A DNA stretch of 64,000 nt from a virus. A program made the translations under genes and the position numbers. Positions 20,059 to 47,817 of the stretch are shown here, one piece after another. The stretch's first letter is position 1. Each line of letters starts with the position of its first letter. The notes below the pieces were generated by a model. That model did not search any database. It was not told where the DNA came from and saw nothing but the letters and a program-made list of their open reading frames with translations. Where the stretch lies: positions 14,216 through 78,215 of the IMG/VR virus record IMGVR_UViG_3300048839_000424; one strand, written 5' to 3'.

Positions 20059-20082
20059 GATTTGAATGAGTTATTCGGATGA
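20059..20082 (+). repeat. Dispersed 24-bp repeat encoding DLNELFG-stop (copy 1)
   Basis: GATTTGAATGAGTTATTCGGATGA; near-identical copies at 29720 and 31700. Confidence 0.9.
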
Positions 20083-20375
20083 GGATTGTATCAGTGATAA
20101 GGAAGCCCTTTGAGGGATCGACAACGCAAAACGTGTTGGTTCATCATGTCTCGTGTATCAACATTGACGGGACCACCCATCAAACTCACGGTGCGGGAAG
20201 CAACGGGATTTATGGGAAGTATGCTGCCATTCAAAGCAACAAAACACGAGGACAGGAACTTGGCCGTTGGCCAGCAAACTTGATTTTGAGCTACCCAGAG
20301 GGTGTTGAGACATTGAATCAACAAACAGGGTTGGAGTACAATGGGGCAAGGTTCTTCAGGAATGTTCTGCTATGA
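20079..20375 (+). CDS. Stand-alone middle segment of a beta-class DNA methyltransferase (copy B1)
   Basis: MRIVSVIRKPFEGS..NV..INID..GRWPANLIL..GARFF; paralogue of 30218..30826; ATG coupled to the DLNELFG stop. Confidence 0.75.
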   Translation: MRIVSVIRKPFEGSTTQNVLVHHVSCINIDGTTHQTHGAGSNGIYGKYAAIQSNKTRGQELGRWPANLILSYPEGVETLNQQTGLEYNGARFFRNVLL

Positions 20376-21190
20376 AACGACTAGATCTAGTTCACTACCG
20401 CAAGGGGTCACTAACCTCCGACACGGTTGAAGCCCTCCGTCATTTGGAACTTCGTACCGCCAAAGCTGATAAGAGCTTTGTTCTTCATGTCTCATCCCGT
20501 GGGTTGGAATCCATGAAATGGGGTGAGGTTAGAGAAAACCCTGGTCCTACAGGATGCCGACCTGAATGGTCTGCGGTTCCTACGGGACGAGAGATTTACC
20601 TCCGATTGGAAATCAACGACGACCAAGGACACCCAGACTCAAAGCGAGAAAGAGAACTTGCCTTGCTCTGGGGGTTGGCAATCCCTCTTGGTTTTACCCC
20701 GTGGGTTCGTTACCCCCTCCCTGGTCCCGGTGATGATGTGTTTCACTACTATGGACCGTGGAGATCGTTGATGGACAGTTTGATGGGAATGGGTCGTGGT
20801 GAGGAAGCATGGCCAAGTTTCTGTTGTGCAGCACAGGTTGATGTCGGTGCTTGGGAGGGGAATAGACCTACCGAGCGATTTGTTCAAGCGCAGTTACACC
20901 GTATGGGATACAATCATGGTCCCGTAGATGGAATGGTTGGACCTCGAACAGAGACGGCTCTCAAGGGGGCTGGATTGCATGGGTTGGCCTTATCAGAGGC
21001 GGCAAAAAAACTCACCTCTCTGGAGTCTAAACCAGCCCAGCGGACGAAAAAAAGGAAGGGGCATATCGTTCTCCCGGAGACTAATTTCTCTATAACTTCC
21101 TATGGACAGGTGAGAACAATCCAAACGGCTCAGGGGGCTGCGGTCGAACTAGATGGCCCTGGTCGGATTATCATCACCACGCAGGAATAA
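20372..21190 (+). CDS. Peptidoglycan-binding protein (PG_binding_1) with a degenerate M15-peptidase-like N-terminus
   Basis: VQAQLHRMGYNHGPVDGMVGPRTETALK matches the PG-binding consensus. Confidence 0.7.
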   Translation: MKRLDLVHYRKGSLTSDTVEALRHLELRTAKADKSFVLHVSSRGLESMKWGEVRENPGPTGCRPEWSAVPTGREIYLRLEINDDQGHPDSKRERELALLWGLAIPLGFTPWVRYPLPGPGDDVFHYYGPWRSLMDSLMGMGRGEEAWPSFCCAAQVDVGAWEGNRPTERFVQAQLHRMGYNHGPVDGMVGPRTETALKGAGLHGLALSEAAKKLTSLESKPAQRTKKRKGHIVLPETNFSITSYGQVRTIQTAQGAAVELDGPGRIIITTQE

Positions 21191-21831
21191 TGACGAGATT
21201 ACACGAAAAGGTCGCATGGGCATGGTTAGACCGATTGCTCGGAAAGAAGGTCGTTGAGCCATCTCCCTCCGTGAACTCTGATTTGTCTGATGCACAGAAA
21301 AAAGCGATCATTGATGACTCGTACCAGAGGATCAAAAAAGACCTCCTTGCGGCTCTGAAAAACGGTCATGCGGAGATTTTTCAACAAGCGGAGAGAGCGG
21401 GTCGTAGGTGGGGAGTACAACCATTGTTTCTCCTCTATTTCCTCGCTGAAGGAAAAAACTGGCCATCACGTCTTGATGCTACGGTGAAGGAAAAGCTGCG
21501 ACTACTTCAGGCTCTTTTACTGAACTTTGGCGTGGCGGAGTTCTATCCGAACGAGATGGGGGAGTTCCCTGATTGGGACAGATTGACTTCAGCCATGATG
21601 GAGATGGGGACATATGGGTGGGGTGTTGTGGTCTGGAAGATTATCGTCCCGAGCTTTAATGCGGCGGTGAGTCGTGAGGCAAAGCGGGTGCTTCATATCT
21701 TCAAAAGACCGGGGGGTTCTAAAAACCCGGACGCTTTTTGGTATCTCTCCAAGTACTTCCAGAAGTCCTGGTGGCACGATAACATCCCCTACAAGCATAT
21801 CATCCTGATGCTGACTAAAGAACTGTTCTGA
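21190..21831 (+). CDS. Hypothetical protein
   Basis: 213-aa ORF; AGGA RBS; coupled to the upstream stop. Confidence 0.6.
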   Translation: MTRLHEKVAWAWLDRLLGKKVVEPSPSVNSDLSDAQKKAIIDDSYQRIKKDLLAALKNGHAEIFQQAERAGRRWGVQPLFLLYFLAEGKNWPSRLDATVKEKLRLLQALLLNFGVAEFYPNEMGEFPDWDRLTSAMMEMGTYGWGVVVWKIIVPSFNAAVSREAKRVLHIFKRPGGSKNPDAFWYLSKYFQKSWWHDNIPYKHIILMLTKELF

Positions 21832-21851
21832 AGGCGTATAATGCCTGACGT

Positions 21852-24800
21852 ATGGATGAGGCATTAAAAGTAGCGTATGAGAAATTGAAAGAGATCCGGG
21901 GTCGCAAGGATCTCGCCCTCAAACCCAACAAGTACCTCAAGGACACCTTTACGGGATTTGATGGGCAGGAGTATCCGTTCAAGCTACGGTACTACCAAGT
22001 CCAAGGGGTTCTTCACATGGTTGTGATGAATCGTTTTCTTCTTGGGGACGACACCGGCACAGGAAAGTGCCAGCCGTATGATTCTCTTGTTCTGACTGAC
22101 AGGGGTCTCCTAAAGATGGGGGAAATCGAAGATTGGTCAGACATGACACCTGATAGCTTTCGCCCTATGAGCAAAAGCCTTCATGTGTTAGTAGATGGGG
22201 AAAAACTCCCCATCAAGAGCTTTTACTATGGTGGGGTCAAGTCTACGGTTACGGTCCATACTAGGTATGGGTTTAAAAACACTGGGTCACAAGTTCACCC
22301 AATGTTAGTTCTTCGGGATGGTTCCCATCAATGGGTGCAGGCTAAAGATCTGATTGAGGGGGACTATCTTTGTATTGAGAGACGTGAGATGTCCTTCCCC
22401 GAGAGTGAGCCCAAGCTAATCGGGAAAGGCCCCTTGGAAGAGGTAACACCTGATTTTGCTCGATTTGTGGGTTACTACATTGGACGAGGTACTCTAATAG
22501 CTAGAGACCAGATAAGTGTCTCCCAGTACCCAGTGAACCCCCCCGAGGTGCTTGCAGACATTATCCGTGTTATGGGTTCAGTTTTCAATAAGGTTCCCTC
22601 ACATCTTAAGGGAATAGACTTGAGTGTCTGTGACACGAGAGCACGACGGTGGTTGGTTGAAAATGGTATGGGTTATCTGAAATCTGCATACCGAGACATT
22701 CCTGACTGTATTCTCCAGGCTTCAAAAACTAGCACTCAAGAGTTTTTACGAGCCTTTTTTGAGGGAGCGGGGCACGTGGATAAGTCCATCGAACTTACCA
22801 CCACATCAAAAACACTAGGGGAGCAGCTACAAGTCCTACTCCTGAGATTTGGTGTAGTAGCTAAGAGAGAAAAGGTCTATAGTCAAGGGGTCTATGGTCA
22901 AGAGGGTCATGTTTATTGGCGCCTGACTATATGTGATAGAGAAGCCGAAATCTTTCGTGACCAGATTGGGTTTGTGTCCTCTCGAAAAAAGGAGGCTTTA
23001 AATGCACTCGTCGATTGCAGTACGCCTCTTTTGAACACGTCGTATTTTTACGACCCTGTTGTAGAGATAGAACAAGGGGAAGAAGAGGTTTTTGACATTG
23101 AAGTGGATGACCCTCGTCATTGTTTCGTCAGCAATGGGTTTGTCAATCACAATACTGCGATGGCTATTTCATCCTATGCCTACGTCTTAGACAAAGAGCC
23201 GAATACGAAAGCAGTAGTGCTTACGAACAAGTCCGTGGTTGGTCAATGGGCCTTGGAATTCGAGAAGTTCACGAAACCGGGGATGATTCGAGTCATCCAA
23301 GTAAGTGGAACCCCAAAGAAGCGGGAAGCCGCTTATGAGGAGTTCAAGAATAGTCAAGGTCCAACCGTGATGATCATGGGATATGCGACTGCGCGACAGG
23401 ATGTCAAACAGCTTCAAACCATCAAGGACTACATTTTGATCACGGACGAAGCGAGTGCCTACAAGAACCCTTCCTCCCAGATTCACCAAGTCGTTCGGTT
23501 CATGGCGAATCAACAGGCGAAGCGCGTCTGGGCTCTCACAGCAACCCTGATCAAGAACAATCTAGTCGAGGGGTATGGGATCTATTCAGTCCTGTGTCCG
23601 GGATTGTTCCCCCCAACGAAAAATGCGTTCATCAACTCGTATGCAATCACGAGGATGCAGAAAATCGCGGGCTCTAATCGCCAAGTCCCGGTCATTGTAG
23701 GATATCGGAAGGACCACATTGAGAACTTCCGTAACAAAATTGACCCCTTCTTCCTGTCTCGGTCCAAGATGGACGTGGCTTCGGAACTTCCCGTGTTGAC
23801 GATTAGGGAGGACAAGGTAGCGTTGACGCCCGAGCAACAGACGAAATACCAGGAGGCTTTGGATGGTCTCCTAGAGATTGATACGACGGGTGAACAGAAG
23901 GAGACGACAAAACTCACGAGTCTAATCTACTGCCAACAAATCGTAGACCACCCGGACTTGATTGACTGTGAGGGGGGCTCGTACAAGATGGACCACTTGT
24001 TCGACATTCTCACGGAGGGCGATTTGGCAGGTGAGAAGGTCATTGTGTTCTCGCGGTTCCGCAAGATGATCGACCTCCTGGAGAAAGAGGCGAAGAAAAA
24101 GAAGATCACATCGGTGAGAATCACTGGTGCTGAAACCAAGGAGGAGGTGCGAAAGGAAGCGATGCAAAAGTTCCAGGATCCAAACTCTGATGTTCAGGTC
24201 TGCTTTATTACTACAGCGGCAGCAGAGGGAATTAACCTCCAAGCGGCGAAAGCCATCGTTTTCTTCGACTCTCCTTGGTCCGCTGGAGATTACCTTCAGT
24301 GTTTAGATGAGGATACAGAAATATTGACTCAAAGAGGTTTTGTGGGTCGTACCTCTATTAAAGAGGATGATTTAGTTGCTGCAATGAACACTCAAACCTC
24401 TGAAATTGAATGGCAGCCGATTCGTTCTATTACTGATCGTCCACGAGCGCAAGACGAACAAATGTATGAAGTCTCTACGAGACATGTAAATATACGTGTC
24501 ACAGGTGGACATCGTATGTTGTATAGAAGAAAAACGCTTAGAAACAACGTAGCGGTTTGGCCTATGGGGTGGGAAATTGAAACCGCTGAACAAATGGCAG
24601 TAGAGAAAACTCATTATCAAATCCCTGCCGCTGGTGAACAAAATTCAAAGGGGTTACCTCTCACTCAAGATCAACTTGAGTTTATAGGTTGGTTCTTGTC
24701 TGACGGTTCCCTTAACAAATCAAACCATCAATTGGTAATTTCGCAAGCAATACATCAACCTCAGATTGTAGATTTACGGCGATGCATTGAAAATTGTGGG

Positions 24801-25607
24801 TTTGATTGGAGCGAGTACAACCGAGATCCCAAAATGACTAAAGGATTTCCAAATGGTAAACCTCAAATAGTCTTCTCTATCCCCAAAGGAACACAAAACG
24901 GCACTCGTGCAAGGAAAGGATGGAAAGAACTAGAACCTTACCTTGACAAAGAGTTGTCACCCTTGTTAGAGGATGTAACCCCCGAACAATTAAGTGCCCT
25001 GCTCCGAGGGTTGCATCTAGGGGATGGGAGTAAATATAGAGGTGACAAGTGGAATCAAGCCTCTTATCACATTTTCACTGGAAGAAAGGTTTTTGCCGAA
25101 AGACTACAGAGCTTGTGTGTTAGACGCGGTTTTCGTTGTAATCTCTCTATTCGACAGGCTGCACCTGGAAGAAAAGAAGGGTACACACTACATATAAAAA
25201 AGACTAATGCGTGGTCTCTATGTGGAAATAAAAAAATGATAGGGCGCTCTCATATGTCCCCTTCCAAAAACATAGAACATGAGAGAGTATGGTGTGTTGA
25301 AAATGATTTGGGTACGCTCGTAACACGTCGTCGTGGAAAAGTAGCTGTTGTAGGAAATTGTATTGGGCGAATGATTCGCATTGGAAGTCAGCATGATCGT
25401 TGCTATGCGATTCACTTGGTCGCTTCGGGTACGATTGATGAGGATGTCATTGTGACCTTGAAGAAGAAGATGAAACTCGTAGAGAAAATCATGGGCAAGA
25501 GGTTGAAGGGTGAGAAGGATCAGGATGCCGTCATCGAGGCGGAAAACGACATCTCTGACCTATTTGATTCCGTCCGTGCGAATGCTCGAACTCGTAAGTA
25601 CAAGTGA
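21852..25607 (+). CDS. SNF2-family helicase/ATPase containing two inteins
   Basis: LRYYQ, GDDTGTGK|T, ITDEAS, LTATLIKN, KVIVFSRF, AEGINLQAA and Q|CIGRMIRIG motifs. Confidence 0.92.
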   Translation: MDEALKVAYEKLKEIRGRKDLALKPNKYLKDTFTGFDGQEYPFKLRYYQVQGVLHMVVMNRFLLGDDTGTGKCQPYDSLVLTDRGLLKMGEIEDWSDMTPDSFRPMSKSLHVLVDGEKLPIKSFYYGGVKSTVTVHTRYGFKNTGSQVHPMLVLRDGSHQWVQAKDLIEGDYLCIERREMSFPESEPKLIGKGPLEEVTPDFARFVGYYIGRGTLIARDQISVSQYPVNPPEVLADIIRVMGSVFNKVPSHLKGIDLSVCDTRARRWLVENGMGYLKSAYRDIPDCILQASKTSTQEFLRAFFEGAGHVDKSIELTTTSKTLGEQLQVLLLRFGVVAKREKVYSQGVYGQEGHVYWRLTICDREAEIFRDQIGFVSSRKKEALNALVDCSTPLLNTSYFYDPVVEIEQGEEEVFDIEVDDPRHCFVSNGFVNHNTAMAISSYAYVLDKEPNTKAVVLTNKSVVGQWALEFEKFTKPGMIRVIQVSGTPKKREAAYEEFKNSQGPTVMIMGYATARQDVKQLQTIKDYILITDEASAYKNPSSQIHQVVRFMANQQAKRVWALTATLIKNNLVEGYGIYSVLCPGLFPPTKNAFINSYAITRMQKIAGSNRQVPVIVGYRKDHIENFRNKIDPFFLSRSKMDVASELPVLTIREDKVALTPEQQTKYQEALDGLLEIDTTGEQKETTKLTSLIYCQQIVDHPDLIDCEGGSYKMDHLFDILTEGDLAGEKVIVFSRFRKMIDLLEKEAKKKKITSVRITGAETKEEVRKEAMQKFQDPNSDVQVCFITTAAAEGINLQAAKAIVFFDSPWSAGDYLQCLDEDTEILTQRGFVGRTSIKEDDLVAAMNTQTSEIEWQPIRSITDRPRAQDEQMYEVSTRHVNIRVTGGHRMLYRRKTLRNNVAVWPMGWEIETAEQMAVEKTHYQIPAAGEQNSKGLPLTQDQLEFIGWFLSDGSLNKSNHQLVISQAIHQPQIVDLRRCIENCGFDWSEYNRDPKMTKGFPNGKPQIVFSIPKGTQNGTRARKGWKELEPYLDKELSPLLEDVTPEQLSALLRGLHLGDGSKYRGDKWNQASYHIFTGRKVFAERLQSLCVRRGFRCNLSIRQAAPGRKEGYTLHIKKTNAWSLCGNKKMIGRSHMSPSKNIEHERVWCVENDLGTLVTRRRGKVAVVGNCIGRMIRIGSQHDRCYAIHLVASGTIDEDVIVTLKKKMKLVEKIMGKRLKGEKDQDAVIEAENDISDLFDSVRANARTRKYK
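22068..23153 (+). mobile_element. Intein (362 aa, LAGLIDADG-type remnants) in the SNF2 Walker A motif
   Basis: Begins CQPYDS, ends FVNHN followed by T; FLRAFFEGAG block. Confidence 0.92.
24300..25358 (+). mobile_element. Intein (353 aa, LAGLIDADG) in SNF2 helicase motif VI
   Basis: Begins CLDEDTE, ends VVGN followed by C; IGWFLSDGS and LRGLHLGDG blocks; visibly AT-richer than the exteins. Confidence 0.9.
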
Positions 25608-25623
25608 AGGGAGTATAAGGAGA

Positions 25624-26496
25624 ATGAGTAGGAACCCCTTTGCGGACCCCGCTTGTCCGAAATGTCACGGGCGTGGGTTTATTTATGCCGAGTCCATGTT
25701 AGATGGTGGGCGCTATTGTGAGTGTACGATGGAGGGGATGCGAGTCCAAAATATGACTCGCATCTGGGAATCCTTGGAATCAGCCAAGGAGATCTCGGTG
25801 TTGCGGAACGACCCCCCGCTCAAGAGATTCCTCAAAAAGTCCTGTCGAATCACGGCGCCCGTAGCTCTCTTTAAGGCTCATTTGAAGGCATTGGCGTACA
25901 ATATGCCTACGGCATGGAATGCTCGTGTCCATACGGATGCAGAACTCCTAGACGTATGGTTTGGCACCCTGAAGGCACAGGGGATGAAAATATACGACTT
26001 CGAGATTGAAAACTCGACGTTGAGGGCTATTGACATTCGAGACCTCGTAGAGCCCCATGACCTTTGCATCATCCTCATGGGGGTCAAGAAACTTCCCAAC
26101 AAGGAGGCGCCATCGAGCTTAGCGGAGGCGATTTCTTACCGGAACCACTTGGACAAACCCACTTGGGTGATCGACCAACCGGACTTACCTTTGGATGGTA
26201 ATCACAGATATCACAATCAGGAAGTCGAACGCATGTTGGCGAAATGGCCGCATGTAGTTCTCTCCGGCCCGAATGTAACGGTGACCAACGAACCACGTAC
26301 AAACTCTCCGGTGGCAACAAATGCTCTAGCGACCGTAGATGACCTACTGGTAACCGAGGATGGGCTTCAAGAGGAAGAAGAGGAGCTATTCGAGGAGGAC
26401 GTAGTTTCTGCCCCTCAAACGAAGAATTTGCTTTCGACATTGACGGTAGAATCGAAGTCCAAGAAGCCCTGGAAAGGGAATAGGCCCAAGCGATGA
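25624..26496 (+). CDS. Degenerate DnaC/IstB-like helicase loader with N-terminal Zn finger
   Basis: CPKCHGRG..CEC; HDLCIIL and ISYRNHLDKPTWVI resemble DnaC segments; no Walker A; lies directly upstream of dnaB; AAGGAG RBS. Confidence 0.55.
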   Translation: MSRNPFADPACPKCHGRGFIYAESMLDGGRYCECTMEGMRVQNMTRIWESLESAKEISVLRNDPPLKRFLKKSCRITAPVALFKAHLKALAYNMPTAWNARVHTDAELLDVWFGTLKAQGMKIYDFEIENSTLRAIDIRDLVEPHDLCIILMGVKKLPNKEAPSSLAEAISYRNHLDKPTWVIDQPDLPLDGNHRYHNQEVERMLAKWPHVVLSGPNVTVTNEPRTNSPVATNALATVDDLLVTEDGLQEEEEELFEEDVVSAPQTKNLLSTLTVESKSKKPWKGNRPKR

Positions 26497-28058
26497 AGAT
26501 TTTACTTCGATCCGTATTCATTGTCAATGCGAGTGACAGTGAGCAGTTGTTTCTCCAGAATTACCATGCCTTGGTTGAGTCCGGGCTTGGTTTTGACATG
26601 CTGGAGGACATCAATATTTGGAAGTTCATTCAGGATTTCTATCAGGGGCATGGTCACCTGCCTACACTCCAGACGATTCGTTCTCACTTCGAGCGCGTTC
26701 AGGAGCTAGAAGTTGTTGACCGTCTTGAACGCTTGGCGATGGAGTCCCCGAAAACTCGTGGTGACTTTATTTCGTTCTTGGAGACTCAGGCGGAAGACCG
26801 TCGTGTCAAAATCGTCATGGAACTTGCCAAGGAAATGGCGACCATCGCCCAAACGGGTATCGACGTAAAGGACAAGGGCGGGAAGAACTCCAAGAAGTTC
26901 CTTGGGGCCGTAGATGCCATCCGGTGGGTTCTCGATCGTTCGCATGAGCTAGTCTCTCCGACGCTGGGAAGTCGTCTCTCCGGCAATGTGGCGACCGATG
27001 GGGAGACCTTCATCACCCGGTATGAGCGCGTCAAATCGGACCCACAGTTTGGGATTGGGTGTTATACGGGGATTCGACAGGTAGACGATGCCTTGAAAGG
27101 GGCAAAGCGGTACGAGCTTTGGATTCACGCAGGATTCACGGGTTCGTTGAAGTCTAGTCTTGCTCTCCAGTGGGCCTACAATCAAATGGTCTACTACCGC
27201 AATTCGACCCTGTATTTTTCGTTGGAGATGCCTTACATTCAGTGCATGAACATGCTCTATGCGATGCACACGGCACATGAAAAGTTCGCACAGATTCGAG
27301 CGCAGTTGGGGATTCAAGATATCGGGCTCGACTACGAGCGGATGAAAAATGGTGTCCTAGCTCCCCATGAGGAGAAGTTCCTGTTCGATTACGTAGTTCC
27401 CGATTTCAACAAAAAATCCACGGTACCGGCGACGGGTCCATATCCCGTAGAGGCTCATGAGTATGGGGATATCTACATCGAGGTTGCTGACCCTGACAAA
27501 ACGGACTTCACGGTTTTGGAGCTACGAGCCAAGGCGGAGTTGATTTATTCCAAAACGCCGTTCAAGATGGTCGTGGTGGACCATGTGGGTTTGATGTCAC
27601 CACGGGAGCGATATGGGTCTACTACGGAGAAGATCAATGAGGTAGTTCGAGACTTGAAAAAACTAGCCATGAGTTTCAACCGGGGTATGGGTATTGCGGT
27701 CGTTGGGTTGGCTCAGTTATCTCGTGAGGGGTATCGAGCCGCTGAAAAGAACGGTGGTAAGTACAACTTGACTCACTTGAGTTATGCCAACGAGATTGAG
27801 CGTTCCGCTGACATTGTGACGGCGACTTGGATTGATGATGACCTGAAAAAAATCAACCGTGGTATTATTCAGTGTTTGAAGTCTCGTGACCAGGCACCAT
27901 TTGAACGATGCCCTCTTCGGGTAGAGTTCTCATGTCGTCGAATCACAACGGACAATACGTCCATTGATGAGATTGAGAACAAAATTCAAGCAAAGCGGGG
28001 GGACATAGACAAGATCAAACCCCACAAGTCGAAAGTACCTGACCTTGGAGACATATGA
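26493..28058 (+). CDS. dnaB: DnaB-like replicative helicase
   Basis: HAGFTGSLKS P-loop, YFSLEM, VVVDHVGLM, LAQLSRE and IERSADIV motifs. Confidence 0.9.
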   Translation: MKILLRSVFIVNASDSEQLFLQNYHALVESGLGFDMLEDINIWKFIQDFYQGHGHLPTLQTIRSHFERVQELEVVDRLERLAMESPKTRGDFISFLETQAEDRRVKIVMELAKEMATIAQTGIDVKDKGGKNSKKFLGAVDAIRWVLDRSHELVSPTLGSRLSGNVATDGETFITRYERVKSDPQFGIGCYTGIRQVDDALKGAKRYELWIHAGFTGSLKSSLALQWAYNQMVYYRNSTLYFSLEMPYIQCMNMLYAMHTAHEKFAQIRAQLGIQDIGLDYERMKNGVLAPHEEKFLFDYVVPDFNKKSTVPATGPYPVEAHEYGDIYIEVADPDKTDFTVLELRAKAELIYSKTPFKMVVVDHVGLMSPRERYGSTTEKINEVVRDLKKLAMSFNRGMGIAVVGLAQLSREGYRAAEKNGGKYNLTHLSYANEIERSADIVTATWIDDDLKKINRGIIQCLKSRDQAPFERCPLRVEFSCRRITTDNTSIDEIENKIQAKRGDIDKIKPHKSKVPDLGDI

Positions 28059-28660
28059 ACCTGACATTAAAACACGGTGATTGCGTAGAGCGATTGAAAG
28101 AAATCGAGTCGAACTCCGTAGATGCGGTCATTTGCGATCCGCCCTATGATATCGCGTTCATGTCTCGAAAATGGGATGATGAGAACACGTTGACGAACGA
28201 GGCGATCTGGCGCGAGTGTTACCGGATTTTGAAGCCAGGGGGTGAGATTCAAGCCTTTGCGGCAACAAGAACCTTTCATCGGTTAGCGAGGACGTTCAAG
28301 AACATTGGGTTTGAGGGTATGCGATTAAAAGCCTTCACCTATGGGAGTGGATTTCCGAAATCTACGAATATATCGAAGCAGATTGACAAACGAGCCAAGG
28401 CGGAGAGGAAGGTCGTGGGGTTCAAAAAAGGGGTTGGTGGTCAGAACTTGAATGACCTCGTGAACAACCGGGATGAGATCCGTAGTACGGATCAGGAAGG
28501 TGGTAAGGGGGTTGGAGCGTATGGGACGGGAGCGAAGCAAGTCGCAGTAGATGTACCTATCACGGAACCAGCGACACCGGAAGCCAAGCTCTGGGACGGG
28601 TATGGTACAGCCTTGAAGCCCGCATGGGAACCTATTGTCGTGGCCAAGAAACCTCTGTGA
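28055..28660 (+). CDS. Beta-class DNA methyltransferase, catalytic N-terminal half only (piece A2)
   Basis: HGDC, VICDPPY, YRILKPGG, YGSGFPKS; stops after GYGTALKPAWEPIVVAKKPL; no FxGxG. Confidence 0.85.
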   Translation: MNLTLKHGDCVERLKEIESNSVDAVICDPPYDIAFMSRKWDDENTLTNEAIWRECYRILKPGGEIQAFAATRTFHRLARTFKNIGFEGMRLKAFTYGSGFPKSTNISKQIDKRAKAERKVVGFKKGVGGQNLNDLVNNRDEIRSTDQEGGKGVGAYGTGAKQVAVDVPITEPATPEAKLWDGYGTALKPAWEPIVVAKKPL

Positions 28661-28672
28661 GTGATATAAAAA

Positions 28673-29743
28673 ATGAGCGAGAATAATATAAAATCCCCAT
28701 TCCCATATTTCGGCGGTAAGAGATTGATTGTAGATATGGTTTGGCAGCGCCTCGGAAAGCCAAAACAGTACATTGAACCATTCTGCGGAAGCGCGGCTAT
28801 GCTGCTCGGTGCTCCGTCTCCGGCATCTCTGGAGGTGATCTGCGACGGGTCCGGGTTCATTGCAAATTTTTGGCGCGCAGCAAAGCACCAGCCCGCCGCT
28901 GTTGCTGAACATGCCGATTACATTGTAAGCCACATCGACCTCGGAGCGCGGCATCGGTGGCTGATGGATCAGCGCGACCGCATCGGAGAAATCTTGCAAG
29001 ACCCCGATCACCCAGGCGATGCGAAGGTCGCGGGGTGGTGGCTATGGGGCCAGTGTTTATGGATCGGTAGTGGCTGGTGCGATTGGGACAAGACGGGACA
29101 GATCCCGCACGTCAGCGACGCCGGGAGGGGCGTGCAGGCGATCGGCAAGATCCCGCACGTCAGCGACGCCGGGTGTGGCGTGCAGGCGATCGGCCAGATC
29201 CCGCACGTCAGCGACGCCGGGAGGGGCGTGCAGGCGATCGGCAAGATCCCGCACGTCAGCGACGCCGGGTGTGGCGTGCAGGCGATCGGCCAGATCCCGC
29301 ACGTCAGCGACGCCGGGATGGGCGGCCTCATGACCAGTTCGGGCCGCGCCGCGTGGGTCGCCCTGCACGCACTCGCGGACAGGCTGGAGCGATGCCGGGT
29401 CATTCACGGAGACTGGTCGCGCGCTATGAATCACCATTATGGCGGGAACAACACAGCGGTGTTCCTTGACCCGCCATATGTCGCATATGAGAATCTCTAC
29501 GGCGTAAAACATCCGGTAGCACTTGATGTCGCAGAGTGGGCCAGGAAGCACGCTCATCTTCGCGTTGCTCTGTGCGGGCACATCGGAGACTACGAAATGC
29601 CGGGGTGGGACGCCGTGCCGTGGGAAAGGTCGCGATTGACATACGGCGGGGCATCGACCAAGGCGAGCGAGTGCATATGGTTCTCACCTGCATGTTTTCC
29701 ACCACCAGATGAATCGAAGGATTTGAACGAGTTATTCGGATGA
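28673..29743 (+). CDS. Dam/D12-family (alpha-class) adenine DNA methyltransferase with an internal 16-aa tandem repeat
   Basis: KSPFPYFGGKR, YIEPFCGSAA and VFLDPPY motifs; ends DLNELFG. Confidence 0.88.
   Translation: MSENNIKSPFPYFGGKRLIVDMVWQRLGKPKQYIEPFCGSAAMLLGAPSPASLEVICDGSGFIANFWRAAKHQPAAVAEHADYIVSHIDLGARHRWLMDQRDRIGEILQDPDHPGDAKVAGWWLWGQCLWIGSGWCDWDKTGQIPHVSDAGRGVQAIGKIPHVSDAGCGVQAIGQIPHVSDAGRGVQAIGKIPHVSDAGCGVQAIGQIPHVSDAGMGGLMTSSGRAAWVALHALADRLERCRVIHGDWSRAMNHHYGGNNTAVFLDPPYVAYENLYGVKHPVALDVAEWARKHAHLRVALCGHIGDYEMPGWDAVPWERSRLTYGGASTKASECIWFSPACFPPPDESKDLNELFG
29101..29317 (+). repeat. 48-bp coding tandem repeat, about 4.5 copies in alternating A-B-A-B pattern
   Basis: GATCCCGCACGTCAGCGACGCCGGG(AGG/TGT)GGCGTGCAGGCGATCGGC(AA/CA), encoding IPHVSDAG[R/C]GVQAIG[K/Q]. 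Confidence 0.95.
29720..29743 (+). repeat. DLNELFG-stop repeat (copy 2)
   Basis: GATTTGAACGAGTTATTCGGATGA. Confidence 0.9.
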
Positions 29744-29771
29744 TTCTCATCCGTAATCCATTAGGGGGTCC

Positions 29772-30221
29772 GTGACTTCCGAGTTGCTGATTTGTATAGG
29801 AGGAATTAGAACTCCTCCTGTGGATGTGGAATCCTTGGTCAAATGTCTTGGAGTATCTGTAATTTACAAGGACAGTGTAGAGGTTTCACGACTAGAGGTT
29901 AATGGTAACCAGGCTACTATTGTTGTGAACTCAAATGCTTCCAAGCAACGCCAGAGATTTGCTTTAGCGCATGAACTTGGGCATTTGTTGAGACATGACC
30001 TTACGAAACCAACATGCCATTATGATTTCAGAGGGCATGCTGCGATAGAGCGAGAGGCTAATATTTTTGCAGCCTCTCTTCTTATGCCAAGGTCTATGCT
30101 GGGGTTGTATCTTGGGTACACAAGCCTTGATCTCGACCAGATCGGCCGGGTTTTTGATGTACCACGAACTACTTGTGAGTACCGAGTAGCGCACTTTCTC
30201 CGTGGGTATCGTGATTTATGA
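29772..30221 (+). CDS. ImmA/IrrE-family (DUF955) Zn metallopeptidase
   Basis: RQRFALAHELGHLL (HExxH) and EREANIFAASLLMP. Confidence 0.9.
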   Translation: MTSELLICIGGIRTPPVDVESLVKCLGVSVIYKDSVEVSRLEVNGNQATIVVNSNASKQRQRFALAHELGHLLRHDLTKPTCHYDFRGHAAIEREANIFAASLLMPRSMLGLYLGYTSLDLDQIGRVFDVPRTTCEYRVAHFLRGYRDL

Positions 30222-32274: not shown

Positions 32275-32281
32275 GGTACCA

Positions 32282-37678: not shown

Positions 37679-37681
37679 ACC

Positions 37682-38071: not shown

Positions 38072-38405
38072 AACCTTCACCGAGAAGGTCGTAAAAAAGA
38101 CCCGGAAGAAGAAGCCCACTGTCGAGAACTTCTACGTCCAAGGGTCATGGCCCATTGGAATCAAAGAACTCCCCTTGCTTTTAATCCGACCCTCTGAGGA
38201 GGTCAAGAAGGTCATGGGCAAGGTCAAAGCAGTTGCCTCGACAATGGACCAGTCCTTGATGATTTGGATGAGTGGCCCCTTGGGGGATGATATCGTGACC
38301 AAAATGAACGATGCAACCCGGATGTTCATTTGGGCGACTTACGATGACGCCAGCGGGCTCGTGTTTGATTTTGAACGAGAGGTGCCCACTAGCTCGACAT
38401 GGTGA
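38052..38405 (+). CDS. Hypothetical protein with basic N-terminus
   Basis: 117-aa ORF; GAGGT RBS. Confidence 0.6.
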   Translation: MPKKKTETFTEKVVKKTRKKKPTVENFYVQGSWPIGIKELPLLLIRPSEEVKKVMGKVKAVASTMDQSLMIWMSGPLGDDIVTKMNDATRMFIWATYDDASGLVFDFEREVPTSSTW

Positions 38406-39444: not shown

Positions 39445-39464
39445 GCGTATAGTGTCAGATAGCT

Positions 39465-42400
39465 ATGGAAGATTTCCTGAATTGGTCTGAAGAAGAACGC
39501 CGCCCTAAAGTCCAGAAAAAACCCTGGATGGACCACAAGAAGATGGTTCTGGGCACCGTTGATAACCTCGACGATATCATTGACGAGTGCATCAAATCGG
39601 GACGGTACGCCATCGACCTCGAAACGACGGGGTTGAATAAAAACTCGTATCAGGTTACGATTACGGAAGGTCGAACGAAGGACCAAATCGTAGGGGTCTG
39701 TTTATCCCCCGATGGGAATGTTGGATACTATCTCCCTATTCGCCATCGGAAGGGGGAGGAGCATAACATCCCCGTCTCTCGGGTGGAGAGGGCGCTACGG
39801 AAGTTGGTGGAGTCTAATTCAGTAGCGACTTTTCATCATGCTCGATTCGACCAGGAGTTCTTGCAGTTCTCGGGAGGAAATAATCCCATCGGTACATGGG
39901 ATGACCCTAAAAAATGGGATGACACGCTGATTCTAACATATCTCATCAACACCCGAGAGCACAATAAGGGACTGAAGCATCAGTCCAAGGTTCAGTTGGG
40001 TTTCGAGATGATCGAAATTGACGAGTTGTTCCCAGAGGACCACAAGGGAGGATATGACTTCTCCGAGTTGGACCCCTCTTGGGAACCCGTGCTTTGGTAT
40101 GCGGCTTCGGATGCGATCTGTACTTACTGTCTGTATGAAAAAATCTCCCCCATCGTATTGAAGGGGACATCAGAGAGGAAAGCACAGGATCAGGTCTATC
40201 TCCTGGAGAAGATGTGTCTCCCTGCGACTCGATGGATGGAACGGGTTGGAATCAACATTGATCAGAACGTGGTCATTGACTTGATTCGACTTGGACAGAA
40301 GGAGTTTTTCACCTGTCTTGAGGAAACCTACGACTTCCTGAATGCCAACCTTGGGAGAAAAGTCGAGCCCGGTTGGTTCTCCTTGCTCCGAGCGAAGAAA
40401 AATCTCGATGACGTAGACTTCAATATCTCGGACCAAATCGAGGAGTTCCGTAAGGAAGCCAAGCGTGAGGGAATGGATGCCCTTGATGAGAAGGGGCATT
40501 ACCTTGTGCTAAAACAGCATAACGGGGAATGGCCAGAGAAGTACGATATTCTTTCTCGACCCCAGCTAGGGCCTTTGTTTGAGGAGTTGGAGATCCCTGA
40601 CCTTGCCCGTACTGAAAAATCAGGGCAAGTCAAGACCACACAGGATGAGATTGATCGTCTCTTTCAGAAGTTCGGAGATCAGTACCCGTTCCTGCCAAAA
40701 ATCAAGAGGCTAGGTGAGTTGCAGAAAGCCTTGGGGACGTATTTAATCTCTCTTCGACGGGATGTTGGTCCTGATGGTTGTTTGCATCCGTACTACAATC
40801 AGTTGGGGACGGATACGGGAAGATATACGACCCCGAGTTCGGATAAACCTCAGTTGGACGGGGGCACGTCTTTCCCTGTACATGGAACACCGGCTACGTA
40901 TGACACGAGCCGTCCCGCCTGTCTATTGGGTATTCGCAAGGCGGTCAAAGCCCGTAAGGGGAAGGTTCTTGCGGCATGTTTTGCAGAGGGTAGCCTAGTC
41001 TCAACAAAGAGAGGTTTGATCCCTGTAGAACAAGTCGAAGATACAGACGAGGTTCTCACGGAGGATGGGTGGAAAACCGTATCTTGGGCTGGCTATACGG
41101 GGGATAAAAACACAATAGCAATACAGACTCAAAAAGGGTTTGAGCTTCAAGTTACCGAGGACCACCTAATCCTAATTGCGGGTGAGAAAGGCTTCTCTTG
41201 GAAAGAAGCAAAGGATCTACAATCAGGAGATTGGGTTGTGCAAGTATCCGGTCATCCAATAGGGCAATCTGATAAGTTACCCGAAACACCTTGGTCATCC
41301 AAAACTATTTCAGTGGTGCAAGAAAAACGCTATCCCTTGAAAACGCCTTCTTATATGACTGAAGGGTTAGCTGAATTTCTCGGTAGATTTATGGGTGATG
41401 GTTCAATCTCGCATGATAACGAATCCCCTGTGTCTGTAAACATTGCCTTGGGGTTAGATGTTAATGAATTACTGCCCAGCCTCAACAGGACCGCAAAAGC
41501 ATTGTTTGACCGAGAATTTGTGCATAAAGGGAGAGGGGATGTTACCATTAGCTCTCGTGTGTTAGCTCGTTGGTTGTGCCTGATTACCAACAAAAATAAA
41601 GATGTCACAGAATTAGAGGTGCCTCAAGCTATTCTAAGAGGGGGTGAAAACCACACTGCTGCTTTCTTGAGAGGATTGTTTGATGCTGATGGATCGATAA
41701 AGAATAGAAAAGGTGACAATATAACCCTTTGGGTTACTTCAACAAAAATGTCACAACAAGTGCAGTTGATGCTACTGCACCAAGGCATCCAAGTACGTCG
41801 AGTTTCCTGTTCGAGAATAACAAACTTTGGAAGCATCCAAGGGTGGGAAATATCTATTTCTGGTATCAAAAACCTTGATCGGTTTAAAGAACGGATTGGT
41901 TTTTTGACACCACGTAAAACTGAACGCCTCAATCGTTTATTGGCATCGGGGAGAAATAGGGATATGTCCGAATTTTTCCCATTGAGTCTTGCTAAACAAG
42001 CGGTGATATGCCCACGGAACGAAAAAACTCGAAGGGTATTTACCAATGGTAGGCGAAAAAACCGGGTAAGTCGTCATCTGCTAAATGCAGCACTACACCA
42101 CCAAGAGGACTTGAATATGGAGTGGATGCACCTGCTTTTAGATGGACCTCTTTTATTTGATACTGTGGTGCATACCTCTCAGGTTGGAATCCAGAAGGTA
42201 TATGATGTAACAGTACCGGAGGGTCAAAAACTCCAGGTGAATGGACTCCTTGCTCACAATTGCGACTTCGGTGGGGTTGAGTTGCGTATTGCTACCAATC
42301 TGTCCCGAGAGCCCAAGTGGATGAAGGAGTATTTCCACTGTAGCTCTTGTGATTTGATCTTCGACAATGGGGATGGGGAGAGCACTCCGATTCCTCCACC

Positions 42401-44237
42401 GGCTTACTGTCCTCGATGTGGTTCAGACAAGATTGGAGACCTTCACACGTTGACGGCGTTGGCTTTCTACGGTGAAGACAAGGCAAGTACGAAGGAATTC
42501 AAGCAGCTAAGACAGAACGCCAAGAGCGCAAACTTTGCGCTGGCATATGGAGGAGGCCCTTCCGCATTGATGAGGGCTACTGGTTGTGATGAGAACGAGG
42601 GTGCAAGGCACCATAGAACGTTCAATCAGACCTACTCGGTACTAAAACAATGGTGGGATGACACGAAGTCTTTTGCCAAGAGACATGGATATGTAGCGAC
42701 GGCCTTTGGTCGTCAGTATCCGTTACCTGACATCAAGTTGCCTATCACACCGGCTGAAGAACCGGACCCACAGAAGCGGGAGATGAATCGTAAGTTTCGA
42801 GCGAAAGCGGAACGAAACGCTACGAATGGCCCGATTCAGGGTTGTATCCATCCTGAAGAGCGTATCCTAACATCACTAGGGTTCCTACCCATTGAGGAGC
42901 TTGATCGTCTAGGTCAGTCTTTTATGGTGTGGACTGGAAAATCCTGGTCAGAGGGACGGGTGTTCTCGTCTGGTCTGAAAGAGGTCCGCAAAACAACACT
43001 GGATTCTGGGCGTGAGCTAAAAACTAGCCCTGACCATAGATTCCTAACTTGGCAGAGAGGTGTTTTAGGGTGGACCCCTCAAAGTGAGCTATCCACGGGG
43101 GACTGGGTTGCTATCAATTCGAAGGACATTAGTCTCCTACTAGGAGATGGTAGTGAAAAATCACTATGGCTTGGTTGTGGTGACACGGCCCCACCTGAAT
43201 TAATCAAGTGTGTAGGGGAGGTGGTCAGAGCGTCCTCTATTTGGGCTACCCTAACAGCACCAGAAAAGTCAGCGGTGTCTAGGCTCATGGTGGGGTCTGG
43301 AAGCAAGCCTCAATGTGTAAAATACCTGAGTCGAGTACCTGAATCCGAGGCCCCTGCATTCTTGTGGGATTACCTGGAATACGATTGGGAGAGAGTGACC
43401 ACCCTTGAAAATCTCGAAGAACAGGTCGGGATGTTTGATATCGAAGTGTTCGACAAGGAGCACGCTTTTGTAGCTAACGGTGTCGTAGTCCATAACTGTT
43501 CAGCGGACCTGACGAAATTGGCAATGGGTCTGATCTACAAAGAGGTCAAGAAACGCGACTGGTTCGAGAAGGTCCATATGATCATTTCGATCCATGACGA
43601 GTTGGTGTTCGAGATTGATAAGGACATCTTGGCGGAGGCGCTAGAGGTCTTTCAGGACATCATGACTCGTAACAAGGCGGTTCTACAACTCAAGTGGCCC
43701 GTGCCTTTGACTACCGATTGTGAGATCGGGTATGACTGGACCGTCAAATGGAATCTCAAGGACTTTCAAGCCCGTCGAGTTCGTTCTGATGGTGTTCAAG
43801 TCGATGAGAAGGGGAAGCCCGATGGCAAAGTGTGGCCTGAAGAGTTCATTCGTATCTTCGGAAGTCGATATGGCTTCGCAGATTTGCCTATAACGGATAG
43901 TAATACTAAGCAGGATGAAGAAAGCACGTCCAACATACAAGCCTCTCAAGAGCCCACGGCGCCCTATCAAGAGTCCAAAGGCGTAACCCCTAGCGTAGCA
44001 CCCCTCCAAGTGGAGAAGCCACAGCGAGGCGACAGCTACGTTTTCCAGTTACGGACTTTGAGCATTGGTGTTGCCGATAGACTCGCCCAAGTCATTGTTC
44101 AATGTGAGGGTCGAGGTACAAATCTGTTGGAGATTCGCACTCCGACGGGAGAAATTATTGCTCCTGGGCCAGAGAAGATCTACGTGAACCCGTTGGAGTT
44201 CGCAACGGTTGCTAAAATCCACGGTTTGTTAGGGTAG
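39465..44237 (+). CDS. polA: Family A DNA polymerase (3'-5' exonuclease plus polymerase) containing two inteins
   Basis: AIDLETTG, HHARFD, YAASDA, TDTGRYT, motif A CDFGGVELRI, motif B RQNAKSANFALAYG, motif C IHDELVF. Confidence 0.96.
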   Translation: MEDFLNWSEEERRPKVQKKPWMDHKKMVLGTVDNLDDIIDECIKSGRYAIDLETTGLNKNSYQVTITEGRTKDQIVGVCLSPDGNVGYYLPIRHRKGEEHNIPVSRVERALRKLVESNSVATFHHARFDQEFLQFSGGNNPIGTWDDPKKWDDTLILTYLINTREHNKGLKHQSKVQLGFEMIEIDELFPEDHKGGYDFSELDPSWEPVLWYAASDAICTYCLYEKISPIVLKGTSERKAQDQVYLLEKMCLPATRWMERVGINIDQNVVIDLIRLGQKEFFTCLEETYDFLNANLGRKVEPGWFSLLRAKKNLDDVDFNISDQIEEFRKEAKREGMDALDEKGHYLVLKQHNGEWPEKYDILSRPQLGPLFEELEIPDLARTEKSGQVKTTQDEIDRLFQKFGDQYPFLPKIKRLGELQKALGTYLISLRRDVGPDGCLHPYYNQLGTDTGRYTTPSSDKPQLDGGTSFPVHGTPATYDTSRPACLLGIRKAVKARKGKVLAACFAEGSLVSTKRGLIPVEQVEDTDEVLTEDGWKTVSWAGYTGDKNTIAIQTQKGFELQVTEDHLILIAGEKGFSWKEAKDLQSGDWVVQVSGHPIGQSDKLPETPWSSKTISVVQEKRYPLKTPSYMTEGLAEFLGRFMGDGSISHDNESPVSVNIALGLDVNELLPSLNRTAKALFDREFVHKGRGDVTISSRVLARWLCLITNKNKDVTELEVPQAILRGGENHTAAFLRGLFDADGSIKNRKGDNITLWVTSTKMSQQVQLMLLHQGIQVRRVSCSRITNFGSIQGWEISISGIKNLDRFKERIGFLTPRKTERLNRLLASGRNRDMSEFFPLSLAKQAVICPRNEKTRRVFTNGRRKNRVSRHLLNAALHHQEDLNMEWMHLLLDGPLLFDTVVHTSQVGIQKVYDVTVPEGQKLQVNGLLAHNCDFGGVELRIATNLSREPKWMKEYFHCSSCDLIFDNGDGESTPIPPPAYCPRCGSDKIGDLHTLTALAFYGEDKASTKEFKQLRQNAKSANFALAYGGGPSALMRATGCDENEGARHHRTFNQTYSVLKQWWDDTKSFAKRHGYVATAFGRQYPLPDIKLPITPAEEPDPQKREMNRKFRAKAERNATNGPIQGCIHPEERILTSLGFLPIEELDRLGQSFMVWTGKSWSEGRVFSSGLKEVRKTTLDSGRELKTSPDHRFLTWQRGVLGWTPQSELSTGDWVAINSKDISLLLGDGSEKSLWLGCGDTAPPELIKCVGEVVRASSIWATLTAPEKSAVSRLMVGSGSKPQCVKYLSRVPESEAPAFLWDYLEYDWERVTTLENLEEQVGMFDIEVFDKEHAFVANGVVVHNCSADLTKLAMGLIYKEVKKRDWFEKVHMIISIHDELVFEIDKDILAEALEVFQDIMTRNKAVLQLKWPVPLTTDCEIGYDWTVKWNLKDFQARRVRSDGVQVDEKGKPDGKVWPEEFIRIFGSRYGFADLPITDSNTKQDEESTSNIQASQEPTAPYQESKGVTPSVAPLQVEKPQRGDSYVFQLRTLSIGVADRLAQVIVQCEGRGTNLLEIRTPTGEIIAPGPEKIYVNPLEFATVAKIHGLLG
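40977..42260 (+). mobile_element. Intein (428 aa) with LAGLIDADG homing endonuclease, in polymerase motif A
   Basis: CFAEGS...LLAHN|C; LGRFMGDGS and FLRGLFDADG blocks. Confidence 0.95.
42843..43496 (+). mobile_element. Short intein (218 aa, endonuclease largely lost) in the NGPIQG|CSAD motif of the polymerase
   Basis: CIHPEE...TSPDHRF...VVVHN|C. Confidence 0.92.
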
Positions 44238-44248
44238 GGTGTTAGTAC

Positions 44249-46277: not shown

Positions 46278-46286
46278 TACGGATAC

Positions 46287-46610
46287 ATGCTGACCATTAA
46301 TTCGTTGTTCAAGCTCAACACGGTGTTTAGTCAGGCGGTTCAGGAGGATGACGAGTGGTTCGTCATCATGACCGTTGAGAAGTATGCGGAGAAAGCTCGT
46401 GCTTTGTTGCTGTCCCTTCCTAATGCGATGCTTGGGGGTAGAACGGCTTTGCTCCGAAACGGGACCAGGGTGTCTGTGGTAACGTTAGATACGGACCTGA
46501 AGCCCGATGGTAAGAGCGTGATGTTTTTTGGGCTGGAGGAGGAAATGCTCTCCCCTTCCTTCGAGGAAAAAGCTCTTGTGTGGAGAAAGTCCGCACGTAA
46601 GATTCTATGA
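46287..46610 (+). CDS. Hypothetical protein
   Basis: 107-aa ORF. Confidence 0.6.
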   Translation: MLTINSLFKLNTVFSQAVQEDDEWFVIMTVEKYAEKARALLLSLPNAMLGGRTALLRNGTRVSVVTLDTDLKPDGKSVMFFGLEEEMLSPSFEEKALVWRKSARKIL

Positions 46611-47035
46611 AGACTCAGTACACATTCGTGATTTCCGGGGGTGATCCTTTGACGTTACAGTTGAGGGGGTGTCCACCTATGCGATATGAGGGTCCGGGGT
46701 CTACGGTGTTCCATGTCATTTGCACGCGGGAGGAAGCTCTTCATGTTGAGATGACTTTCAAGGAAGCCCACTGCAAGGTCGTTGTCCATACGCATGGGGA
46801 GACGGTCGAGCAGAAACAAATGAGGGTCAATCTTCTTGCATTACAGGGGGAGAACAGTTTTCCGACGAAAGACTGTCCCTCTTGCCCTTGGTTTGATCCC
46901 GAGATTTCAGGTCTCTGTGGGGCTGGTAAGACTGGGAGTGAGCAATACTCCGAAGCTGTGATTAAACATCAAATGAAGTCGGAGCGATTTAAGGACGCCT
47001 ACAACAACTGCACATGGGACACGAAATCAAACTGA
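46607..47035 (+). CDS. Hypothetical protein with CxxC
   Basis: 142-aa ORF; ATGA overlap. Confidence 0.6.
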   Translation: MKTQYTFVISGGDPLTLQLRGCPPMRYEGPGSTVFHVICTREEALHVEMTFKEAHCKVVVHTHGETVEQKQMRVNLLALQGENSFPTKDCPSCPWFDPEISGLCGAGKTGSEQYSEAVIKHQMKSERFKDAYNNCTWDTKSN

Positions 47036-47817
47036 CGCCCGCATTGGAGGGCCTGAAGGGGATGGATTCTTCAGTAGGGCTCGTAGTTACGGACCCACCT
47101 TACAACACGTTGGAAAAGTGGCGTGCTGTAGGGACGACGACCAGGCTTACCAAGTCGGATGCAAGTTCGAATGAATGGTTCCCTACAGTTGACTTCGACT
47201 ATTTAAAGGACGTGTTTCGAGAGTGCTACCGGGTATTGAAGCCCAATACTCACATGTACATCCTGTGCGATGAGGAGACGGCGGATCACCTAAAACCCAT
47301 CGTAGACGAGATTGGATTCAAACGGAAGAAGTCCTTGATTTGGCACAAGGTCGGTAAAAAAACCGACGTTCACTGTCCAAAATGCGGCACTTTTGTTCAC
47401 ACGACGAACAGCCCCGGTGCTCCAGGTATGGGTTATCCGTATCGATCATCGTATGAGATGATTCTCCTGTTGGAGAAGGGGAAGCGCCCTATGCCTACGG
47501 ATTTGAGCGTTCGGAATGTGTTGAGTTTCCCGTACCTGAAGGGAAAGTCGTACTACCCTACGGAGAAGCCGGTAGACATGTTGGAGGTGTTTATCACTCA
47601 GAGTTCCAATCCTGGAGATTTAGTTCTTGACCCGTTTGCTGGAAGTGGTTCGACTGGTGTAGCAGCATACAATTTGGGACGAGAATTCCTTGGGTTTGAC
47701 GTGCAGGAGAGAAGCCTGGAGTATTTTTCATCTCGGTTGGGTGAGGTGTCTCTAGTATCCGATACGGAGGATACCAAGAGTGAGCCCAGCGTCTTTGACC
47801 TGTTTGGGGATGAATGA
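47014..47817 (+). CDS. Complete beta-class N4C/N6A DNA methyltransferase with a short CPKC insertion
   Basis: VVTDPPY, YRVLKP, YPTEKP and LDPFAGSGSTG; ends SVFDLFGDE. Confidence 0.92.
   Translation: MGHEIKLTPALEGLKGMDSSVGLVVTDPPYNTLEKWRAVGTTTRLTKSDASSNEWFPTVDFDYLKDVFRECYRVLKPNTHMYILCDEETADHLKPIVDEIGFKRKKSLIWHKVGKKTDVHCPKCGTFVHTTNSPGAPGMGYPYRSSYEMILLLEKGKRPMPTDLSVRNVLSFPYLKGKSYYPTEKPVDMLEVFITQSSNPGDLVLDPFAGSGSTGVAAYNLGREFLGFDVQERSLEYFSSRLGEVSLVSDTEDTKSEPSVFDLFGDE

Follow-up and report, generated by a model that had tools for sequence, protein, structure and literature searches.

In bacteria, the beta sliding clamp is bound through the motif QL[SD]LF or QLxLxL, of which the pentapeptide QL[SD]LF is the canonical form, and its clients include Pol II, III, IV and V, MutS, MutL, Hda and delta. 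The tails of the single-stranded DNA-binding protein (SSB) type (DDDIPF) consist of an acidic run and a free C-terminal Pro-Phe. In phage T4, the C-terminus of gp43 (EKASLDFLFG) binds the gp45 clamp and a loop of the ligase (EPEGLDFLFD) binds it as a short amphipathic helix; the named clients of gp45 are gp43, the ligase and gp33 (PMC6212786). In eukaryotes, the DNA methyltransferase (MTase) DNMT1 is tethered to PCNA through a PCNA-interacting protein (PIP) box (PMC9690074). No description of clamp-binding motifs or tails on bacterial or phage DNA MTases was found in the open-access texts searched, where DNA MTases are not listed as beta-clamp clients either. We describe here a C-terminal peptide, DLNELFG, that is common to MTases of different classes in a stretch of viral DNA of 64,000 nucleotides (the window), and that may tether these enzymes to a sliding clamp. 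The window corresponds to bases 14216-78215 of the linear 78,215-bp IMG/VR virus record IMGVR_UViG_3300048839_000424.

The completeness of this record is estimated by CheckV at 15%, which corresponds to a fragment of a phage of about 500 kb. A nucleotide search revealed no close relative in the phage collection. The only sizeable relative of this collection is the uncultured 485-kb phage LR745208, whose family-A polymerase (PolA) is 43% identical over 83% of the protein.

Detection of a common C-terminal peptide

The peptide DLNELFG followed by a stop codon was searched for with a degenerate back-translated DNA pattern. Three exact matches were found on the + strand, at positions 20059, 29720 and 31700, against 0.00 matches expected by chance (dinucleotide-preserving shuffles). 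A repeat search recovered the same places as a 26-nucleotide (nt) repeat family, in which copies 2 and 3 are 96% and 88% identical to copy 1. The identity stops outside these 24-26 nt, and the exact tail DNA is absent from IMG/VR. A first-pass annotation of the window, made from the sequence alone, had noticed this peptide and its near-identical DNA in three MTase genes or remnants, and both observations are borne out. The features concerned are the following.

19029-20039, + strand: A1, N6_N4 (beta-class) MTase with the DPPY motif and the middle region (Pfam PF01555, positions 1-89 only; three-frame translation)
20057-20082, + strand: tail repeat copy 1, DLNELFG and stop, in the +1 frame relative to A1; remnant of the original C-terminus of A1 (...ARARIAHAEGEISLEDLNELFG)
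28673-29743, + strand: Dam-like (D12-class) MTase; homologous to its relatives as far as residue 341 (SPAC), with a replacement of the last 15 residues
29718-29743, + strand: tail repeat copy 2, DLNELFG and stop, end of the Dam-like MTase; 25/26 nt identical to copy 1
29740-29775, + strand: open reading frame (ORF) of 11 codons, opened by the ATGA of copy 2 and leading into an IrrE/M78-like gene (29772-30221)
30827-31723, + strand: piece C, S-adenosylmethionine (SAM)-binding part of a beta-class MTase (HPTVKP, FMGSG), flexible linker and tail (Pfam PF01555; AlphaFold2 model)
31698-31723, + strand: tail repeat copy 3, DLNELFG and stop, native tail of piece C
47014-47817, + strand: fourth MTase, N6_N4, complete, 267 residues (Pfam PF01555, E = 1.6e-36)
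47788-47817, + strand: tail of the fourth MTase, SVFDLFGDE and stop; same type of peptide as DLNELFG with different codons, not a DNA copy of the repeat

In the 25,863 residues encoded by the ORFs of the record, four instances of the strict motif [LIVMF]x[DE][LMIF]F[GDE] were counted, always at most 12 residues from the C-terminus. Its carriers are three MTases and one SNF2 protein, all of them DNA-acting enzymes. The ending SVFDLFGDE of the fourth MTase, also reported by the first-pass annotation, uses different codons for the same type of peptide, which argues for selection on the peptide itself.

At the DNA level, the three copies are more alike than the peptide demands. When three independent encodings of DLNELF were drawn from the codon usage of this genome, only 1.7% of the simulations were as similar (P = 0.017); Gly and the stop codon were excluded from the simulation because they are fixed by an ATGA stop/start overlap. 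The rare Leu codon TTA (8% usage) is present in all three copies. These values point to a common DNA descent of the copies, probably by one duplication plus one exchange. The 24-bp sequence had also been proposed as a recombination joint for the swapping of MTase cassettes. One exchange event is indicated by this probability together with one chimeric gene; a recurrent recombination site is weakly supported.

The final ATGA of each copy had been said to start the next ORF. This holds for copy 1, where it starts B1 (20079), and for copy 3, where it starts a kinase-like gene (31720), but the ATGA of copy 2 opens only the 11-codon ORF, which terminates in a TGA that overlaps the GTG start codon of the IrrE-like gene (29772). 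The overlap was rejected as a tail-specific feature, given that 13/62 gene junctions of this genome carry one.

Conservation of the tail in the methyltransferase families

The tails were compared in the 120 best matches to piece C, drawn from a metagenomic protein collection, and in 120 relatives of the fourth MTase, a tail being counted within the last 14 residues. The motif h-x-[DE]-h-[FLW] is present in 86/120 (72%) relatives of piece C and in 73/120 (61%) relatives of the fourth MTase. The control rates are 0.9% and 4.6%, respectively, in windows taken from the protein bodies, and about 2-2.5% in shuffled tails. In the relatives of piece C the tail is typically preceded by an acidic linker and displays the consensus ...SLDDLFG[FLMI]. 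The alignment of 41 of them reveals that Phe297 is invariant and that Leu293 and Gly298 are conserved in at least 90% of sequences, while the linker varies in length and sequence. The tail is intact in a relative from another sample that is 94% identical to piece C. The family of the fourth MTase ends in ...TGG[IV][LF]D[LM]FG[DE]. In the AlphaFold2 model of piece C, the fold ends near residue 267 and is followed by an unstructured linker (residues 268-284) and a short helix (residues 285-297), both of low confidence.

In LR745208, all six N6_N4 MTases (6/6), a DUF6094-type MTase of 1323 residues and an MTase-like protein of 301 residues end in tails of the type [ST][IV]LD[LM]F. The records that contain close tailed relatives are all fragments of phages with an estimated size of about 370-530 kb. 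Among more distant N6_N4 relatives from IMG/VR, 41 are tail-less, 15 have a tail with Gln at its first position (Q-type, described below), 17 have another [LMIF]-Phe pair near the end and seven have the tail type seen here. Since the tail types are mixed among these relatives, the tail is a module that has been added onto a catalytic core conserved between them. For piece C and for the fourth MTase, the tail is ancestral to the family and was not gained in this phage.

The first-pass annotation had considered that a tail found on cellular homologues, or at random on proteins that do not act on DNA, would speak against a docking role. Homologues with the tail do exist, but they are MTases of phages and prophages and the tail is not scattered at random among them; the functional reading is therefore strengthened, and the tail is a real, selected and modular C-terminal peptide carried by MTases of different classes.

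LR745208 also encodes four small proteins (97-211 residues) to which no function was assigned and whose ends resemble the tail (GLAGLLGL, GLLGLLGL, FSDLFDKRK and ELFGLFSDK; positions 54651-54944, 246379-246789, 345338-345784 and 403540-404175). These proteins may be further clients of the partner of the tail, or competitors for it.

Exchange of the tail on the Dam-like methyltransferase

The Dam-like protein is 74% identical to one of its relatives (P0125) up to residue 341, and its last 15 residues, PPPDESK-DLNELFG, are unrelated. The gene has a GC content of 0.60 (0.57-0.74 in the body) and A1 one of 0.56, against 0.42-0.47 in the flanks and 0.51 in the genome, in agreement with the GC-rich bodies remarked upon in the first-pass annotation. 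The relatives of the Dam-like protein, with 56-74% identity, are found in IMG/VR contigs of 56-71% GC and in contigs of metagenome-assembled genomes (MAG) from many phyla. Prophage-like neighbours (RecT, YqaJ or a second MTase) were observed in 2/3 MAG contigs examined.

In these relatives the sequence ...SPAC[LF]P is followed by a short linker and then by Q-x-x-[LM]-F, which is present in 58/119 relatives against 0.1% of controls. The Q-type endings include QERLF, QLGLF, QFSLF, QVDMF, QLDIF and QLSLF. In 21 IMG/VR loci (about 400 ORFs), every protein with a Q-type tail also carries the MTase motif IV; two of these proteins are non-Dam MTases (QLSLF and QVPMF). On a contig of Planctomycetales, the Dam-like MTase and the adjoining N6_N4 MTase are both Q-tailed (QPSLF and QASLF). 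Tail type tracks the genetic element and not the enzyme family, because the Planctomycetales contig, LR745208 and the window each give one tail type to different MTase classes.

The homology of the body that ends at SPAC, the contrast in GC content and the match of the tail DNA with copy 1 at 25/26 nt all argue for a tail swap. As judged from these sequence comparisons, the Dam-like gene was acquired from a GC-rich phage or prophage lineage, and its bacterial clamp-type Qxx[LM]F tail was exchanged for the phage's own tail at the DNA level. The suggestion that foreign MTases are domesticated by gain of the tail thus fits the Dam-like gene, where a Qxx[LM]F tail was replaced, but not piece C nor the fourth MTase, whose tails are ancestral.

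The Dam-like gene also contains five tandem 48-nt repeats (29096-29335) that encode units IPHVSDAG[RC]GVQAIG[KQ]. This repeat is a feature of the family and is found in P0125 too.

The A1 remnant and the split beta-class methyltransferase

The stop codon of A1 is at position 20037, and copy 1 lies 20 nt downstream of this stop in the +1 frame, outside the reading frame of A1. The +1 frame behind A1 reads ...ARARIAHAEGEISLEDLNELFG and then a stop codon; it thus contains the helix with which MTases of this family usually end, and then the tail. In the uninterrupted MTases of LR745208 (533-543 residues), the part that aligns with A1 is residues 1-330. Since the +1 frame carries the last helix and the tail of the family, A1 has lost its SAM-binding part by an internal deletion and a frameshift near 20000-20010. 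The description of this copy as a remnant, given in the first-pass annotation, is in line with this frame.

Three further MTase pieces belong to the locus.

20079-20375, + strand: B1, short MTase middle module, 98 residues, opened by the ATGA of copy 1; 83% identity to the beginning of B2 over its first 54 nt
28055-28660, + strand: A2, N-terminal (DPPY) piece of a split beta-class MTase (Pfam PF01555, positions 1-73); aligns to the first ~200 residues of the LR745208 MTases
30218-30826, + strand: B2, middle module of the split MTase, with a TAA stop followed by the in-frame ATG of piece C

A single beta-class MTase is split into A2, B2 and C within 28055-31723, and A2 is separated from B2 by the insertion of the Dam-like and IrrE/M78-like genes. 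The orthologues of A2/B2/C in LR745208 are single proteins of 515-543 residues. The N-terminal part of piece C (about 197 residues) resembles a decayed MTase half in which KGNP replaces DPPY. B1 (20079-20132) and B2 (30218-30271) have in common their first 54 nt, with a 26-nt identical core, and both begin at an ATGA overlap. Homology is seen between the residues that open B1 and B2 (MR[IV]VSVIRKPF) and those that close A2 (EPIVVAKKPL).

Comparison with known docking peptides

The consensus of the piece C family, S-L-D-D-L-F-G-h, is close to the end of T4 gp43, S-L-D-F-L-F-G, and corresponds to the LDFLF(G/D)-type epitope. The likeness pointed out by the first-pass annotation is therefore real: EKASLDFLFG is a close match (PMC6212786). 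In both systems the core L-D/N-x-L-F-G is nearly identical, sits on a flexible segment at the extreme C-terminus and is predicted to be helical, and several unrelated enzymes of one phage carry a common peptide. Two differences have to be mentioned. No clamp of the gp45/PCNA type was detected here and the polymerase has no epitope (PF02916, PF09116 and PF00705 are absent from the record and/or LR745208). Moreover, the clients are DNA MTases, which are not among the named clients of gp45 (PMC6212786).

With the bacterial beta-clamp motif, the tail has in common a short terminal peptide that ends in [DS/E]-L-F on a flexible linker, and the Dam-like relatives have textbook versions of this motif at exactly the same position. 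The motif is also exposed, since it represents the last 7-9 residues behind the low-confidence linker of the AlphaFold2 model. However, DLNELFG and SVFDLFGDE are without Gln, only their last three positions ([DE]-L-F) fit QL[SD]LF or QLxLxL, and DLNELFG has an Asn at the hydrophobic position of the motif.

The comparison with DNMT1 and PCNA is an analogy only. An MTase with a clamp-binding peptide leads to methylation of newly replicated DNA, but the motif (QxxLxxFF), the clamp and the enzyme family all differ; the tails contain neither Gln nor a double aromatic, and only the L-x-x-L-F spacing is similar to the PIP box. The tails are not of the SSB type, as they end in LFG or LFGDE without Pro-Phe. 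The present case is set apart by a DNA cassette in near-identical copies, a stranded remnant, a visible replacement of a bacterial-type tail by a phage-type tail, and clamp loaders found in relatives without a recognisable phage clamp.

Proposed mechanism and alternative explanations

We propose that DLNELFG is the version, in this lineage, of a modular C-terminal docking peptide composed of a flexible, mostly acidic linker and the sequence h-x-[DE]-h-F-G, which phage DNA MTases of several families carry. The peptide would most likely tether the MTases to a DNA sliding clamp, and methylation of nascent phage DNA would then take place at or just behind the fork, as with DNMT1 on PCNA. The clamp would probably be the host beta clamp, loaded possibly by the phage's own DnaX-like loader. 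Copy 3 is the tail native to the beta-class MTase of this phage and copy 1 the stranded tail of a paralogous MTase after an internal deletion; copy 2 has taken the place of the Qxx[LM]F tail on a Dam-like MTase of horizontal origin, via exchange with an A1-type copy. The sliding clamp is the best reading of the partner because of the likeness to the T4 peptides and the interchange with Qxx[LM]F. We estimate the probability of this whole statement at about 0.5. That the peptide is a functional docking peptide, whatever its partner, is highly probable; for the partner to be a sliding clamp the chances are even or slightly better. Both the partner and the effect on methylation are what we infer from the comparisons above.

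Clamp-loader genes are consistent with such a partner. LR745208 and a 289-kb relative encode DnaX-like clamp-loader subunits, and the one from LR745208 contains an intein and a DnaX lid domain. At 436207-438056 of LR745208, a small delta-prime-like loader gene (205 residues) is located directly upstream of, and overlaps, a tailed MTase that ends in SLLEMLGM. These genes would fit the use of the host beta clamp or of a phage ring that was not recognised.

Several observations weigh against a clamp. With the profiles PF00712, PF02768, TIGR00663, PF02916, PF09116 and PF00705, no sliding clamp (beta, gp45 or PCNA) was found in the 78-kb record, which represents about 15% of the genome of this phage, nor in LR745208 and five fragments of related huge phages. 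The scan of the record that the first-pass annotation had suggested for both tail and clamp thus returned four C-terminal motifs and no clamp gene. The replicative polymerase belongs to family A, which classically works without a clamp; it ends in ...HGLLG, and the tail is on neither PolA nor the ligase. DLNELFG, as seen above, departs from the bacterial pentapeptide at Gln and at the hydrophobic position 2. A clamp should have further clients, but hardly any protein other than MTases carries the tail. A sub-threshold gp45_C match (E = 0.01) inside an ORF of 833 residues was disregarded, and four orphan ORFs of about 330 residues (25510, 32634, 44249 and 45258) gave no clamp lead with PHROGs and the protein atlas. 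A complex prediction of E. coli DnaN with residues 252-298 of piece C, run without controls, gave a score of 0.00, which is neither support nor counter-evidence.

The acidic tails of T7 gp4 and gp2.5, which end in Phe, dock on T7 polymerase. The tail could in a similar manner be a docking peptide for a partner other than a clamp, such as the family-A polymerase or the helicase, the neighbouring SNF2 translocase, or a hub protein of huge phages. This would agree with the lack of a clamp gene in the lineage, with a replisome made of PolA and a DnaB-like helicase, with the strongly acidic linkers, with the near restriction of the tail to MTases and with the SNF2 genes located near MTase genes in both this phage and LR745208. 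On the other hand, the Dam-like family has the canonical beta-clamp motif at the same position, the relatives have clamp-loader genes, and the Phe is usually followed by Gly and 0-5 residues and is not the free C-terminal Phe needed for docking of the T7 type. We consider a non-clamp partner rather unlikely, though it is the most serious of the alternatives. The interchange with Qxx[LM]F in one family and the close likeness to proven clamp peptides also speak against a tag for degradation or regulation, which a host AAA+ protease or adaptor, for example, would recognise and which would limit MTase levels without any tether to replication. The tail does not resemble known C-terminal degrons such as the ssrA-type tags ending in LAA; a short, exposed, hydrophobic C-terminal peptide on a flexible linker (AlphaFold2 model) and its presence on one enzyme class only would speak for such a tag, which we judge improbable.

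The repeat might finally be a mere scar of duplication or recombination among MTase fragments, the peptide being functionless. Three DNA copies more alike than the peptide requires (P = 0.017), one of them a dead remnant, in a locus rearranged by the splitting of an MTase, the duplication of the B module and gene insertions, could be read in this way. This explanation is contradicted by the relatives from many other samples, most of which end in the same type of peptide in three MTase lineages, and it does not account for the different codons of the fourth MTase, for an invariant Phe297 beside a drifting linker, or for the intact tail of the 94%-identical relative. It is the least credible of the explanations considered.

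Neighbouring genes

The + strand holds nearly all the genes of the window. The tailed MTases are surrounded by a replication and DNA-modification module, with a Cpn60-like chaperonin, an intein-bearing SNF2 helicase, a DnaB-like helicase, an NAD-dependent ligase, the intein-bearing PolA and several MTase genes or gene pieces. The phage-encoded Cpn60/GroEL-like chaperonin (17479-19032) is directly upstream of A1, with an ATGA overlap between them. Inteins are abundant: one with a LAGLIDADG domain is present in SNF2 (21852-25607), and PolA (39465-44237) contains at least two intein/Hint segments. The DnaB-like helicase (26493-28058) matches its family in two separated stretches.

25551-25571, + strand: DISDLFD in the C-terminal helix of the SNF2 protein (21852-25607), 11 residues before the protein end

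This segment is present as the first-pass annotation had stated, but its assignment to the same tag is not upheld. The closest SNF2 relatives keep DLFDS (EVNDLFDS, DLSDLFDS) and in farther ones its place is taken by DLDDIY, DLGELL or SLKDLV as part of a longer basic helix, so that the helix is conserved only among close relatives; its identity with the MTase tail is doubtful and we have left it outside the core claim. Several distant SNF2 relatives (P0468, P0472, P0480, P0486, P0500 and P0510) end in an SSB-like D-[IV/A/L]-P-F (DEIPF, DDIPF), which is a different docking tail within the same helicase family.

At the end of the window (61146-63897), three convergent genes are located on the - strand. 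One of them displays a weak, sub-threshold match to CglB, the gliding lipoprotein of myxobacteria (E = 3e-15, 56 bits for a cut-off of 200). This match is a possible, weak hint of a host among the Myxococcota.

Biological significance

The tail swap on the Dam-like gene represents a natural experiment, which speaks for one and the same function of the phage-type tail and the canonical clamp motif of bacteria. A broader picture can be sketched tentatively, and we hold it to be less likely than the mechanism proposed above: a clade of phages of about 500 kb would have a 'plug-in' methylation, in which every MTase, of any family, wears the clade tail L-x-[DE]-L-F-G and docks on a clamp placed by the loader (host beta or an unrecognised ring); captured MTases would be converted from Qxx[LM]F by a cassette of 24-26 nt, and the tail code would separate phage-directed from host-directed methylation. 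The tail type could serve as a marker that links orphan MTases to a replicon or a host. If the tail tethers the MTases to a clamp, these phages would win the race between restriction and self-protection by methylating their DNA during its synthesis, and the system would be the counterpart, in bacterial viruses, of DNMT1 on PCNA.

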